Of a stretch of 64,000 nt of DNA, positions 1 through 36,679 are shown one piece after another. Source of the DNA: Eledone cirrhosa. Lineage: Eukaryota. How positions within the stretch are numbered: position 1 is the stretch's first letter; every line of letters starts with the position of its first letter. A program made the position numbers and the translations under genes. The stretch is taken from the NCBI GenBank assembly GCA_964016885.1, contig OZ024750.1, positions 20,708,001 to 20,772,000 of the forward strand, in the 5' to 3' direction. The notes under the pieces were generated by a model, which was given only the letters and a program-made list of their open reading frames with translations, was not told the origin of the DNA and made no database searches.

Positions 1-510
1 TAACGCCAAAACCACTACCAACATAAGAGTAGAGGTCAGATGTACTTAAGAGTAACAAGAACAACCACTACAGATTGCCTTGCCTCACAACGAATTTCTA
101 TAGACTTTTGACTGAGGAATGTTCTCACAACTGACCAATGAGAGGAGAAGATGTCCTTTGATGCTGAAATTCGTTTGTTTAAATTCATATGATTCCAGTT
201 CCTCAGTGAAACAACAACCCAACCAGGAACTGGGCATATCAGAGTATTGACAAAGTTAAACACCTCAACAACATGTGTACTCGTCTCTACCACACTAATT
301 CGAACTGCCTGAAGAGGTCACAGCCAAAGATGGGTGTCACCGAAATATATATAGCAGTAATAAACGAAGCCAAATTTTTAACATTTGACTTATTTATTTT
401 ATTTTATTTTACATTTCTCCGGAGTAACTAAAGCAACATGCGCACTTCGTCGAGTGCTCCATCTGCACACTCCGGTGTTGATATACAACCAACATATACT
501 CAAAATTTAT
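1..510 (+). mobile_element. Penelope-like element 3' fragment (pLTR with hammerhead plus tail), family C
   Basis: Contains the hammerhead at 304-358 followed by AATAAA and a tail with GTCGAGTGCT (449-458), ending at a (TA)n tract. Upstream sequence resembles the copy at 29667-29830. The 5' boundary is unknown (window edge). Confidence 0.55.
304..358 (+). ncRNA. Type I minimal hammerhead ribozyme (Penelope-like pLTR type)
   Basis: ACTGC(304-308)-CTGAAGA(309-315)-stem II GGTCACAGCCA/aaga/TGGGTGTCACC-GAAA(342-345)-palindromic TATATA-TA-GCAGT(354-358). All core nucleotides present; predicted cleavage after 353. Confidence 0.8.
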
Positions 511-629
511 GTATATATATATATATATATATATATATATATATATATATATATATATATATATATATATATATATATATATATATTTATATATATATAT
601 GTAAATATTAATTCAAAATATTAATAAAT

Positions 630-840
630 ATAGACATTTGTGTGATGAAGTATATTTTATTATACATATTTAAAAGGTACTGAGCTATCTTCAATAGTAC
701 GTCCTCATCAGATAAAATAAGTTGATGCTTGATCTACCTTGACTATGTTGATGGTTAAAAATCAGTCATGGCAGTGCTTCGAATCTATTGTAAAACTTTA
801 TTCATTGATTTATTCATTGAACCTTGTTTAACCTTTAAAT
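630..840 (-). mobile_element. Degenerate Penelope-like pLTR with decayed hammerhead
   Basis: Minus strand reads CTGATGAGGACGTACTATTGAAGATAGCTCAGTA then AATAAA, between (TA)n tracts. GAAA is mutated and stem I is not evident. Confidence 0.3.
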
Positions 841-1143
841 ATATATATATATATATATATATATATATATATATATATATATATATATATATATATATAT
901 ATAACAGTTATAAATATAAATATATATATATATATACATATATATATATATATATATATATAAATGGAATAGAATGAAACGAAATTTCATTTCTCACTCT
1001 TAGTACGTCTGTATACATATATGTATGTACGTATACATACATACTTACATTTATATATATATATAATATATATATATATATATATATATATATATATATA
1101 TATATATATATATATATATATATATATATATATATATATATAT

Positions 1144-1292
1144 AACGGAGAAAGCTATTAGCGATACTTCGACCAATTTCCAACTCACTCAACAAACATT
1201 AGGAAATACCGGAGTATATTCCCAATTAAACGTTTGGGGTGCTAACTATATTGTATTGTGTGGATAATCGGCTGTATTATTTTATATGAGAT
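1144..1292. repeat. Interspersed repeat (second copy at 37582-37740), adjacent to (TA)n
   Basis: AACGGAGAAAG.TATTAGCGATACT...CCAACTCACTCAACAA.CATTAGGAAATACC.GAGTATATTCCCAATTAAACGTTTGGGGT is shared by both loci. Confidence 0.75.
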
Positions 1293-1469
1293 ATAATATA
1301 TTAACATTGATGAAATCTTCATATATGCAATCTAACTATCAGAATTATTTGGTATGTTATGCATGTCATGTGAAATATTATTCAATACAGATTCACTATT
1401 AAATGCGATAATTTGATAACATTTTGCCCAACTTCAGGAATCAATTTTGTTCACGTATACATATAAAAT

Positions 1470-1622
1470 GTTTCTACTTCTGGCACAAGGCCGGCAATTA
1501 CCCCAGTACATTACTGGTACTTCAATTATTGACCACGTAAGGACGAAAAGCAAAGTCAACATCGGCAGGATTTGAACTCCGAACGTAAAGGCCATGGTGT
1601 TTGACGCTTTACCGATTCTGTT
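1470..1622 (-). mobile_element. tRNA-derived SINE copy (dominant family), internally deleted
   Basis: Reverse complement of the family consensus: ggcacaaggcc.gcaatta...actggtactt...gcaaagtcaac...gatttgaactc. Confidence 0.8.
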
Positions 1623-32590: not shown

Positions 32591-32745
32591 CTATATGTGC
32601 TAATTTACGTGTGTTGTATTGAAGTGAATAACTATGAGTCTACTCTGGGATTTTACACAACATTATCTATTGAATACGCTGAGATGCAACCGGGAATAGC
32701 AGTGAAAACCATGCTTGTCTCGTCAACTTATTATATATATATTTA

Positions 32746-32877
32746 ATAGGAAAAGAGTCAGGACTTCGACGGCTGAGCCCCGGCCGTTTCGACAGCTAGA
32801 TCCGAAGAGTACCCTAAGTATCGAGTACTCTGATGTGTTATGGTCCACCTGGTTTCTTTCCACACATCCTTTGTTAT
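32746..32877 (+). mobile_element. Family B element with inversion plus deletion
   Basis: Inverted arm ATAGGAAAAG...CGACGGCTGAGC..CGGCCGTTTCGAC joined directly to the tail TACCCTAAGTATCGAGTACT...CTTTGTTAT. Confidence 0.75.
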
Positions 32878-35800
32878 ATATATATACATATATATATATA
32901 CTGTTTAAATTTTCTGATTTTTGATTTACAGGTGCCAATAGGAAAACATGTAAGTTAACGTATGTGTACTTTTGTATATGGCATTTATGCGTCTGTGTCT
33001 CTAGATTGTGCGGCTGGTTGTTCAGTTTAGTTTAGTTAATTCTTACTTCATCAGCTTCTTTCTAGTATTAACGTAGTGGTGGTATGGCAGGAATTGGTGC
33101 TGGTATTCATGATACTAGTGTTATGGCTCCGCTCTTTATATTTATAGAGTGACTTTGGACGTACGAAATTAGTATCTTGGATGAGTATCGCATACAAAAG
33201 GACAGGGGCTATTAGTTAAAGTGGAGTCAATGATTACTTCAAAGCATGCCGATATTTGAGAAATGTTTGTATGTTTGCGTGCGCATGTGCATGCGTGTTT
33301 AACGGTGTAAAAGAGTTTTGTAGGACGTTGGATGGTAAGGAGATGATGAAAAGGATTAGAAAATGAATGAAAAGATAAGAAGAGGAAAGATTTATGTTAA
33401 GTGTTAATTTTAGCCACTTTTATATGAAATCTTTGAAAAGTAAGATATGGATTGAACTTTAAAGAAAAAGAGAAAAGAGATGTCGTTTGTTTAATAAAGA
33501 AATGGGTACGGAAATATAATGGAATCTATTCATGAATATTCCTCGGTCCCGGATCTGCTGTTTTCCACCGTAAAAAAAACGAGAAAGACAAAATAATCGT
33601 TTGAGGAAGATGTGCCGTGCACAGGGGTTGTTGTTCAAACATTCACTGCTGCAACGCATTCGCCGTTGCCCATACTGCTCAGCCTGGAGTGTAGAGTCTT
33701 TCGATCCCTCCCATACCTAATGCTTTCGTTGCTTAATTTATTTTTTTTTGTTTTCCTTTTCTTTGTTTTTCGTTTCCTCATTGCCATTCATAATCCACAG
33801 ATTTTATCAAATTTTCTCTTTAGTTTAATAACATTTATATTTAAACTTTACATAAGATGATATGTGTGCGATATATGAAATAAGTATAATCAATCCCATC
33901 TAGTTCAAGCTGGACGTATTATATTATATTTTAGATATACAATGCTTCTAAAAAAATCTGATCTTTGAATTAAAATACACAAATCACTGTGCAACTGAAG
34001 AAAAAAAAATGATGTGTGTTTCTAAGCTTTTTTTAAGGGCGGAAAGTGATTGTGTAAGTATGTACACCAAGCTACCAAAAATATTAAAAGTATAAACCAT
34101 TAAAAAGAAACAGTAAATGATAATCGAATCAAATTGCAGGAAAACATAAATGAGAGTAGGAGAAAATGGTGAAAGATATATCGTCTAAACTGAAGTATAG
34201 AGTGGTTGTAGTCGCTTGTGTTGTCACATTATACGATAAGGAAATTATAATCCATTGTGTTTAAAAAATAGAGATTAATATAATAATATATTTAAATATT
34301 TTAAAAGGGAGAAAAAGTTATAGATACGATTTCAGATTTAAGAAGCGAATAGGTTGAATTGTTTTAAATTAGATTACATTAGTGTAAACAAAGTAAATTA
34401 AATTAAATTACATTACTTTATACCTTCAATTTTAAAGACAAAATACAGATCTATGTTAAGGTAAGGGTGAAGTTGGGGCTAACGAAAATTTAAGTGATTA
34501 AAGTAAATAATAAAGGTAAATATTTAAGGTAAAGTCACATAAAAAGGGTTGTTAAATTAAAGGAGAAAGGATTAAATCAATTGAATTATATGTAATAAAA
34601 TAATCTCAAATTAATTTAATAAAAATAAATTGAATTAAATTGAAAAATAACATTAAATAGAAAAGAATAATAAAATATATACAAAGTAATTCAAGTAAAC
34701 TAGAATGGATTTAATTAAATTGCATAAAAGATATATGCCAAGCTGTGGGTGAAGTGGGGAATTAAATTTAAATGATTAAACAATCGAATGGGAGTAAATA
34801 TTTAAGTTAGTGACAGAAGATGACGATATTGAGATTTTAAGAGGAGGGACTAAACGTCCAATCTAGTAGATATATGACCATATGGTATGAAATTGTACAT
34901 TGGCAGTAATTGAGGAAAAGGTGTACGAATAATTAAAAGATACACACTGTAAAATCTAAGAAAAGTAGGTATAATATTGTCCAACAAAGCTTTGGAAGCC
35001 ACATTGGAAAATTTTAATACATAAAATGGTTAACGACGAGGTGTTGGTTTTGTATTAGAGGTAGGCTTTGAGGATTTACTTTTACAAGAAGAGATTTTGT
35101 ATATTAAGAATATTGTGTTTAGAAAACAGGATAACCAAACGTTCCAGCGTGCATAAATTGCAAGGTTTTTAACATATGCACCATTAAAAATTCGAGCTAT
35201 ATACTCGCTGGCCACAGAGTAATATTAAATATTTGTTTTCCAATAATATTCATACTACATATATATTCATGCTATATACAAATTAATCTCATACATACAT
35301 ATATAGATACATTACACACACACACAAACTGAGAGAAAGGGAGAATCTGATATATACATATAAACACATATACATACATGTATATATTTTATCTTATTTT
35401 TAGCCATTAACTAGATGCACTAGTTCAATATTTCAACTGCGGCTATACTGTAGCGTAGACTTCAAGGGGTTTTAGTCAATAAAATCGACACTCCGCACAA
35501 TCTATTCATTTTGTGGAGCGCACTTGATGAAACAGAAAAAAGACAAACGATTATTTTATTTCTGCAATATTCCTGTCAATATCAGTAGCTATAGTTCCCT
35601 CTAGGCCGTGCATTAATTGGAGATAGTCCTCCAGGGGTAGAAACAATTATTTCATCTTCTGGAATATGACGAACAAGTTGTATATACGAGGTGTCAAATG
35701 CCTCAGCTTCAAAAGCAACCAACTAACACACAACCAAACAAACCAAATATTCTTACTATTTATGTCAATTCATATCCATAAATGCATGCATATATATATA

Positions 35801-36114
35801 TATATATATATGGGTGTATGTGTGTAAATATGAATATGTATATGAATATGTATACGCAAACACATATATTCATATATACGCATCAATGATGTATATGTAT
35901 ACATATATATATATATATATATATATATATATATATATATATATATATATATATATATATATATATATATATATGTATATATATATATATGGATGTATAT
36001 ATATATATATATATATGTATATATATATATATATATATATATATATATATATATATATATATGTGTGTGTGTGTGTGTGTGTGTGTGTGTGTATGTATAT
36101 ATATATATATATAT

Positions 36115-36310
36115 ATAGGAACCAGTAAGACCCCGACAGCTGAGCTTAAGCCGTTTCGACGACTAATTCTGGACTGAATTAGCCGTCGAGACGGCTTGAG
36201 CTCAGCTGTCGGGGTCTTACTGGTTCCTATTACCCACTCTACTACCTCAAGTATTGAGTACTTTGGTGCGTTATGGTCCACCTGGTTCCTTACCACATTT
36301 CCTTCGTTAT
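36115..36310 (+). mobile_element. Fold-back element, family B
   Basis: Arms around TGGACT (CTAATTC tggact GAATTAG); right arm ends TTCCTAT (36230) then tail to CGTTAT; (TA)n-flanked. Confidence 0.85.
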
Positions 36311-36679
36311 ATATATATATATATATATATATATATATATATATATATATATATATATATATATATATATATATATATATATATATATATATATATATAT
36401 GTATATATATATACATATATATATATATATATATTTGTGTGTATGTATATATGTATATATATATATATATAATGTATATATATATAGGCGTTTTAACGTC
36501 CAGTTACTCTAGATTCACAATAGTGAGCACTTGATGCGTATTTTTCATTAAGTATAGACGTTTAATAATAATAATATAAAGGAAGATTTGTTATGTCCTC
36601 ATTGCGTTTATTTAGTAGTGACACGCGTTTCCCTATTGATCAGCTCAAGGTTCCATCTGTATCGATCTGGCCTGACTCT

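Follow-up and report, generated by a model that had tools for sequence, protein, structure and literature searches.

The Hydra clade of Penelope-like elements (PLEs) is characterized, in the parts of Craig et al. (2021, PMC8557442) that were consulted, by RWK/RWR and DKT motifs, a CxCX5C linker together with a GIY-YIG endonuclease at the C-terminus, as well as by a hammerhead motif, (TA)n targets and tandem or inverted tailed insertions, and these traits recur in the elements described below, the hammerhead as a putative core in some of the families; the tail, 30-40 bp long, is attributed there to endonuclease-mediated resolution. As for a more distant relative, the Poseidon element PAc of Anolis, the sections examined of Frangieh et al. 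(2024, PMC11167929) report that in vitro both target strands are cut and extended, and that the reverse transcriptase (RT) initiates at two internal positions, one at either end of the tail, and depends on RNA lying about 55-60 nt 3' of these; the protein-binding signal was narrowed only to a 172-nt region, with no motif defined. Here we consider a 64,000-nt stretch of the Eledone cirrhosa genome (assembly GCA_964016885.1, contig OZ024750.1, positions 20,708,001 to 20,772,000, forward strand; hereafter, the window), in which a first-pass annotation had noticed the motif ATYGAGTRC near the 3' ends of several TA-flanked element families (A to F). We propose that these are Hydra-clade elements whose leader is predicted to form two hairpins, that the motif is the 3' strand of the one nearer the 5' end, and that each hairpin is a likely binding site placing the RT a few bases upstream of it (probability about 0.65).

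ATYGAGTRC corresponds to the 3' strand of a predicted bulged RNA stem-loop (hairpin 1) in the leader between the hammerhead and the ATG, with the layout RCUC - variable stem - loop - stem - 2-nt bulge - GAGY - RCU. The motif begins with the final base of the variable stem and continues through the bulge and the GAGU strand to two bases of the tail; loop lengths vary between 2 and more than 60 nt. Most families of this genome have A-U as the outer pair of hairpin 1, and G-C takes its place in family D and in the metagenome families discussed below. An upstream RCTC with at least three further pairs was found at 48/80 sites with a 2-nt bulge vs 1-6/80 with other bulges, and the hold-out gave 20/37 vs 0-4. 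A second copy of the hairpin (hairpin 2) became visible just beyond the 3' junction once read-through copies had been located: in families B, C, E, F and one further family the sequence continues there as TATYTWGCTCC and then a second GAGCRCT-type box, the same arrangement as that of hairpin 1, where RCTC stands a few bases past the end of the inverted arm and is followed by the motif. For family C hairpin 2 was predicted and then found, TAGCTCC following the tail in 40 of the 43 matches listed. The order of the leader is thus hammerhead - J1 - hairpin 1 - spacer - J2 - hairpin 2 - ATG, J1 and J2 being the junctions at which inserted copies end, and four Hydra-type families whose 5' ends are intact carry a variant of the motif upstream of their ATG.

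Copies from a 1.19-Mb unbiased sample and from the window were mapped onto read-through references of seven Hydra families, which placed 80 ends at J1, 95 at J2 and 3 between them. Among the head-to-head pairs 43/46 combine J1 with J2, about half being expected if the ends were chosen independently; an earlier mapping, which included loci selected for tails, gave 38/38. From each junction to the RCUC strand on its 3' side there are about 2-7 nt, and the junction mostly falls in a TA-like stretch matching the target; in every mapped family with an intact hairpin the junction stays a few bases 5' of RCUC despite varying loop and spacing. The motif-bearing hairpin 1 is situated just 3' of J1, where the tail-less arm ends, and the mapping of head-to-head copies bears out the earlier remark that the tail is absent from the inverted arm. 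The distance of the motif from the 3' end is therefore the spacing to the second hairpin, which inserted copies normally lack. The tails are about 75-140 nt here, in contrast to the 30-40 bp given in the consulted parts of PMC8557442. A "solo tail" (J2-primed cDNA stopping at J1) was considered and dropped, as 0/95 J2-ended copies start at J1 after a TA run.

All 12 sites cited by the first-pass annotation were found in the window, 8 of them as exact ATYGAGTRC and 4 with one mismatch (449, 6188, 21450 and, on the minus strand, 36535); the minus-strand motif starts are 2975, 28520 and 36535, for which roughly the left ends had been given. Eight of the nine exact matches in the window stand at element tails. 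The distance from the 3' end had previously been put at about 35-60 nt; measured from the motif start to the (TA)n run it is 42-63 nt at 11/12 sites, but 94 nt, outside that range, in family D. Full hairpin 1 could be recovered at 6/12 sites (C, A twice, B twice, D), while it is mutated at 6188, 12202 and 28520 and lacks its 5' strand at 9320, 32820 and 36535. The features of the window are as follows.

309..345, plus strand: putative hammerhead-like core CUGAAGA...GAAA (pattern scan) in the pseudo-long terminal repeat (pseudo-LTR) of family C, upstream of hairpin 1
416..459, plus strand: hairpin 1 of family C, with a 6-bp variable stem, 2-nt bulge, GAGT and tail; at the first base of the 5' strand this copy is unlike young ones; its end is at 511
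2922..3120, minus strand: head-to-head insertion of family A; the minus arm ends at J2 at about 2922 (tail), the inverted arm at J1 at 3120
2965..2987, minus strand: hairpin 1 of family A, 3-bp variable stem
6171..6198, plus strand: family B hairpin 1, its GAGT strand carrying one substitution
9320..9330, plus strand: family B fragment with only the 3' strand of hairpin 1, no 5' strand upstream
11945..12254, plus strand: family F insertion, motif at 12202; variable stem broken here, intact in other F copies
15221..15404, plus strand: head-to-head insertion of family B, J1 arm and J2 arm; hairpin 1 at 15334-15361
21088..21543, plus strand: head-to-head insertion of family D; hairpin 1 at 21386-21460, of the GCUC/GAGC form, with a 5-bp variable stem and a 51-nt loop
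25304..25490, plus strand: head-to-head insertion of family A; hairpin 1 at 25425-25447
25895..25924, minus strand: hairpin of a further family (GCUC/GAGC, 7 predicted pairs, 2-nt loop), absent from the first-pass annotation; relatives in loci L071 and L082, no open reading frame (ORF) linked
28466..28803, minus strand: head-to-head insertion of family E, motif 28520-28512; one variable-stem mismatch
32742..32874, plus strand: family B insertion, tailed arm without the 5' strand of hairpin 1, motif at 32820
36118..36307, plus strand: head-to-head insertion of family B; hairpin 1 at 36236-36263
36487..36535, minus strand: diverged F-type tail, one-mismatch motif, 5' strand not found
62607..62713, minus strand: another copy of family B, its motif mutated, beyond the range annotated earlier

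The family A insertion at 2922..3120 is adjoined, at 2711-2900, by two tandem 95-nt units separated by (TA)n. One more hairpin family, with a 5-bp inner stem and partly in tandem, was noticed elsewhere in the genome (L058:2595-2700, L109:3864 and 4492, L093:3770-3880); its motif lies about 80 nt from the end, and no ORF was linked to it.

The motif is enriched before (TA)n and its position is fixed, as the first-pass annotation had expected. Counted by copies, most of which belong to families A and B, ATYGAGTRC-N30-60-(TA)5 occurs at 51,159 forward-strand sites of the 3.0-Gb genome vs 922 for the backwards control under the same counting (the raw counts of 300,930 and 4,495 are inflated by overlapping TA starts, so that the former two figures are the comparable pair); in a first sample of 80 evenly spaced 10-kb pieces, 800 kb in total, the motif stands 40-59 nt before (TA)n in 35/56 matches and its reverse complement in 0/56; and a 390-kb hold-out agrees, with 16/20 at 40-69 nt and 0/20, 0/5 and 1/5 for three controls. 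At the level of clusters the excess is weaker (22 vs 8 of 915 flank clusters at 40-79 nt), and de novo k-mer enrichment over these clusters is weak, because most of them are unrelated singletons. The tails of A-F do not align as one family, a possibility that had been raised against the motif: by blastn they are unalignable beyond 10-14 nt, except for two F copies.

At the protein level, in contrast, the view that the families are otherwise unrelated is not borne out, since the sequences of A, B, C, E and F continue past the tail into Hydra-clade PLE ORFs. Many Penelope-like ORFs are present in random samples of the genome. The read-through copies of A and B were located by patterns excluding microsatellite flanks, and a pattern built from these copies returned E and F as well; motif-N38-56-TWTYTWGCTCC had 438 matches vs 0 for the control. 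The fetched loci run from the tail into a Hydra-type ORF for A, B, E (in L161) and F, and for family C this was so in 7/7 loci tested, L300, a TA-ended copy, being left out. A search for read-through copies of family D found none; its tail lies behind fragments of a Hydra endonuclease domain, which were seen at 10/25 D loci. Compared with one another, A, B, C, E and F have 39-67% identical RT cores; identity to those of metagenome elements is 26-45%. In an RT tree built without published Hydra reference proteins, without D (no RT) and without N092 (dropped for length), 34 Hydra-type rows, including A, B, C, E, F and 23 metagenome rows, group into a single clade, separate from the two non-Hydra PLEs of the same genome, with support 100/100. 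These data provide grounds to conclude that the motif is common to the families by descent, retained while the flanks diverged.

As to the encoded proteins, intact single ORFs with the RT and a C-terminal YIG motif (GIY-YIG, recognized by eye) are present in family B (L152) and in the L121 family. A Pfam scan of pieces of the Hydra-type ORF gave no match, and 2,058 homologues were retrieved at E<=1e-30. RWR occurs in B and L121 and RWK codons in C, GxKF/Y lacking conservation, while in place of DKG there is DKTG in B, F, L121 and L129 and DKT in A; the CxCX5C linker, as well as CxxC and CxH near the end, were recognized by eye in B and L121, without CCHH. Insertion into (TA)n is likewise that of the Hydra clade, whereas the N-terminal endonuclease and CxC of Naiad and Chlamys are not found, the endonuclease being C-terminal here. 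A canonical hammerhead-like core, a putative ribozyme by pattern scan, is present in the pseudo-LTR of A and C; no hammerhead was among the 150 Rfam matches listed. The hammerhead-like cores of B (L152:4710-4790) and D (window 21290-21320) read CUUGAGA, not CUGANGA. The intact ORF of B lies in tandem 3.53-kb units (L152-L153), and the L121 family forms tandem units of 6.67 kb, whose long 3' region is mostly microsatellite-like; full units are thus 3.5 and 6.7 kb, compared with generally under 3 kb in the parts consulted of PMC8557442. The L121 family (L121, L122, L124; G000:C1:183742001-183752000 and others) is very young: it has 97 scored matches at 99-100% identity, most of them in open frames of about 830 aa.

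In eight families the distance from the motif to the ATG is 89-210 nt with all three frames represented, and the motif is therefore non-coding; its interpretation as Ile-Glu-Tyr/Cys was rejected on this ground. In the leader of family B (L152:4786-4987) the frame of the ORF stays open over the 68 codons that precede the aligned Met, a stretch that spans both hairpins and contains no ATG. Two other candidates, a tRNA B-box and a rolling-circle nick site, were dropped once the elements had been tied to PLE ORFs.

The twin hairpin is found well beyond this genome. A first metagenome scan with the RT alignment of this genome found no loci; a scan with an alignment of 40 homologues gave 78 metagenome Hydra loci, which were grouped into 55 families at a 78% identity cut. 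Among the 53 loci with a near-complete ORF start 48 leaders could be scored, and the strict structure was present in 25/48 of them vs 0.8% of shuffles and 1/48 reverse complements. With a minimum of one pair, 27/36 families having a leader of at least 150 nt possess both hairpins, 7 possess one and 2 none. The boxes are spaced at 54-69 nt in 26/30 metagenome families, hairpin 2 lying 20-56 nt and hairpin 1 81-121 nt before the ORF start. When selection was by anchors only, 61/63 family-hairpins paired at the first variable position with a 2-nt bulge (0-21 in other registers). At this pair U-A prevails in hairpin 1 and C-G in hairpin 2, which comes close to a single event; pairs 2 and 3 of this set exceed all 5,000 permutations. 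For hairpin 1, with one row per family and positions outside the selection anchors, pair 2 is Watson-Crick in 22/27 families vs 10.0 permuted (reached by 0/5000 permutations) and pair 3 in 16/27 vs 7.9 (reached by 4/5000), the permutations ignoring relatedness and therefore not being probabilities. At pairs 2-3 G-U outnumbers A-C by 12 to 3, and the sense strand is therefore favoured as the folding strand. The antisense count of the box (136 vs 76) is uninformative as a control, because the box is near-palindromic. Among the six published Hydra consensi (PMC8557442), judged by eye, Hydra-2_Amil, Hydra-1_Ajap (where two copies precede the ATG) and Hydra-2_Ajap show the hairpin clearly, Hydra-1_Crog and Hydra-1_Obim imperfectly and Hydra-1_Amil weakly, while the box-like matches in the inspected excerpts of the Naiad and Chlamys consensi do not resemble the terminal hairpin.

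Sequence comparisons thus establish the anatomy of the leader, its conservation and covariation, and the geometry and pairing of the junctions. Considering them together, we tentatively suppose, giving it somewhat less than an even chance, that the duplicated hairpin is a two-site landing pad, at which two RT-endonuclease units on one RNA would prime both strands of a double-strand cut at fixed internal positions. In the interpretation favoured here, with the probability given at the outset, a read-through transcript would bind two protein units, one per hairpin; the GIY-YIG nuclease would cut both strands of the (TA)n target; each target 3' end would pair with the UA-rich stretch at J1 or J2 and prime cDNA, and the two cDNAs would be joined head to head. 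Hairpin 1 would then be copied on the J2-primed strand only, so that the tail would be one-sided and the motif would lie about 55 nt short of the end; the tail would represent the spacer between the two start sites, and hairpin 2 would normally be left uncopied. One RNA is assumed for both priming events because the near-strict pairing of J1 with J2 is simplest that way. In L1 twin priming two primers on one RNA give an inversion, and in telomerase boundary elements and the epsilon of hepatitis B virus an RT-bound RNA structure fixes the start or stop of copying. In contrast to these systems, to which no homology is claimed, both starts are here fixed, internal and marked by hairpins, and the arms copy the same upstream sequence. 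Features in common with PAc would be two internal starts at the bounds of the tail, the cutting and extension of both target strands and the need for RNA 3' of the starts; PAc, however, belongs to the Poseidon clade, and its RT starts within the ORF, in a stem-loop rich in AC, according to the sections seen of PMC11167929.

Several observations weigh against the binding of RT at the two hairpins and its placement by them. Minimum-energy folds contain both hairpins in 2/3 metagenome leaders, the leaders of B and E prefer to pair the 5' strand of hairpin 1 with the 3' strand of hairpin 2, neither hairpin forms in that of F, and the fold z-scores are weak (-2.65 to +1.12). The inner stem of hairpin 2 is short, its pair 2 being paired in 13/27 families; hairpin 2 of family A departs from the consensus, that of N092 is degenerate, and a search for it in family D found none. 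The covariation counts span related families rather than independent events. Three of the 46 pairs are not J1+J2 (one J1+J1, one J2+J2, one J1+intermediate), and a non-Hydra PLE family of the same genome also pairs J1 with J2 (7/7), the Hydra-type hairpin being present at 0/28 of its ends; the hairpin is therefore not needed for two-site starts in general. Still, the data support the earlier suggestion of a conserved cis signal with a link to priming or 3'-end formation, because the motif is kept across families with RT cores 31-67% identical and across metagenome elements, and is tied to insertion junctions; what has to be abandoned is that the signal is linear and single and that its carriers are unrelated.

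In family B (L152:4812-4935) 9 pairs can be drawn between the 5' side of hairpin 1 and the 3' side of hairpin 2, an alternative fold that would enclose J2, and a conformational switch between the local hairpins and this cross-paired form is possible. Direct pairing of box 1 with box 2 as a conserved structure was unsupported, there being central mismatches in B and in most metagenome families.

The fixed geometry of junction and hairpin would also be expected if the hairpins directed RNA cleavage at J1 and J2 and the RT started from the free RNA 3' ends in a LINE-like manner. The element already has a hammerhead motif, and a few read-through copies do begin at J1 after a TA run (L160, L161). 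Cuts on separate molecules, however, would not give 43/46 J1+J2 pairs, copies starting at J2 behind a TA run hardly occur (1 match genome-wide, with one pattern), and the 0/95 mentioned above speaks against the same idea, as does the Poseidon relative, which starts internally on uncut RNA according to the examined parts of PMC11167929. Rfam, run on 7 hairpin loci, gave one below-threshold microRNA match elsewhere and none on the hairpins. We regard cleavage as unlikely. Slightly less probable still is that the boxes act as DNA, i.e. as near-palindromic sites for the endonuclease or for a transcription factor of the pseudo-LTR promoter: GAGYRCTC is indeed near-palindromic, its invariant parts dominate, and the tail of D. 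virilis Penelope is needed for endonuclease recognition of plasmid DNA (cited in the part seen of PMC11167929), yet duplex recognition leaves unexplained the compensatory changes in the variable stem, the fixed register of the 2-nt bulge and loops of 2 to over 60 nt, and the asymmetry between G-U and A-C points to the single sense strand.

About equally improbable is a role of the hairpins as RNA sites for particle assembly or for translational control by the start codon, with the junctions set by something nearby. The location of hairpin 2 20-56 nt before the ORF start and the two junctions of the non-Hydra family, which lack such hairpins, would suit this explanation; in metagenome families, however, 81-121 nt separate hairpin 1 from the ORF start, and in no mapped family with an intact hairpin does the junction depart from its place a few bases 5' of RCUC. 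Residual homology without function, for which one could invoke the position of all families in one clade, seems very improbable and is contradicted by the conservation and covariation data: the flanks are unalignable and the RT cores are only 26-45% identical to those of the metagenome elements, but the boxes, the bulge and the pairing persist.

We thus favour the two hairpins as probable RT-binding sites. The elements, the tail and the inverted structure were already known, while the clade-wide hairpin cis element, as far as sequence data and the sources covered allow one to judge, appears new. The hairpins are not described in the examined passages of PMC8557442, are not mentioned in the parts examined of the retrozyme preprint 10.64898/2026.07.22.740005 or, by term search, in Cervera 2014 (PMC4209133), and were not found in a search of the open literature, which did not extend to Repbase, Dfam and most subscription papers. 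If the interpretation is true, it would mean that an RT-recognition element has been defined for the first time in a Penelope-like retrotransposon, account for the tail at one end and for the head-to-head structure, and offer a portable cassette of about 100 nt for target-primed synthesis inside RNA, in the closest relatives of telomerase. It bears on how PLEs pick their start sites and why the tail sits at one end only, and the occurrence of the twin hairpin across distant Hydra families, together with intact young elements, makes it directly testable. In annotation, too, the hairpin can serve as a short diagnostic, for a repeat class whose tailed copies number roughly 100,000 here (twice the forward-strand count of 51,159).

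Another TA-flanked repeat of the window (15565-15980 and 38154-38767) is present in two copies 93% alike over 456 nt and carries TTCGAGTAC near one end; no link to PLEs was seen here. As for the non-Hydra PLE clade (L243, L251, L254; window 14237-14968), it has two fixed junctions about 60 nt apart, both followed by TATCG, and two of its families have in common the motif ATGACCCTCCC just before J1, which suggests that this clade may use a different start signal. The non-Hydra PLE at 14292-14968 of the window is a perfect inverted repeat of 307 nt, each arm of which has a hammerhead core, and its centre is poly(T)/A-rich.

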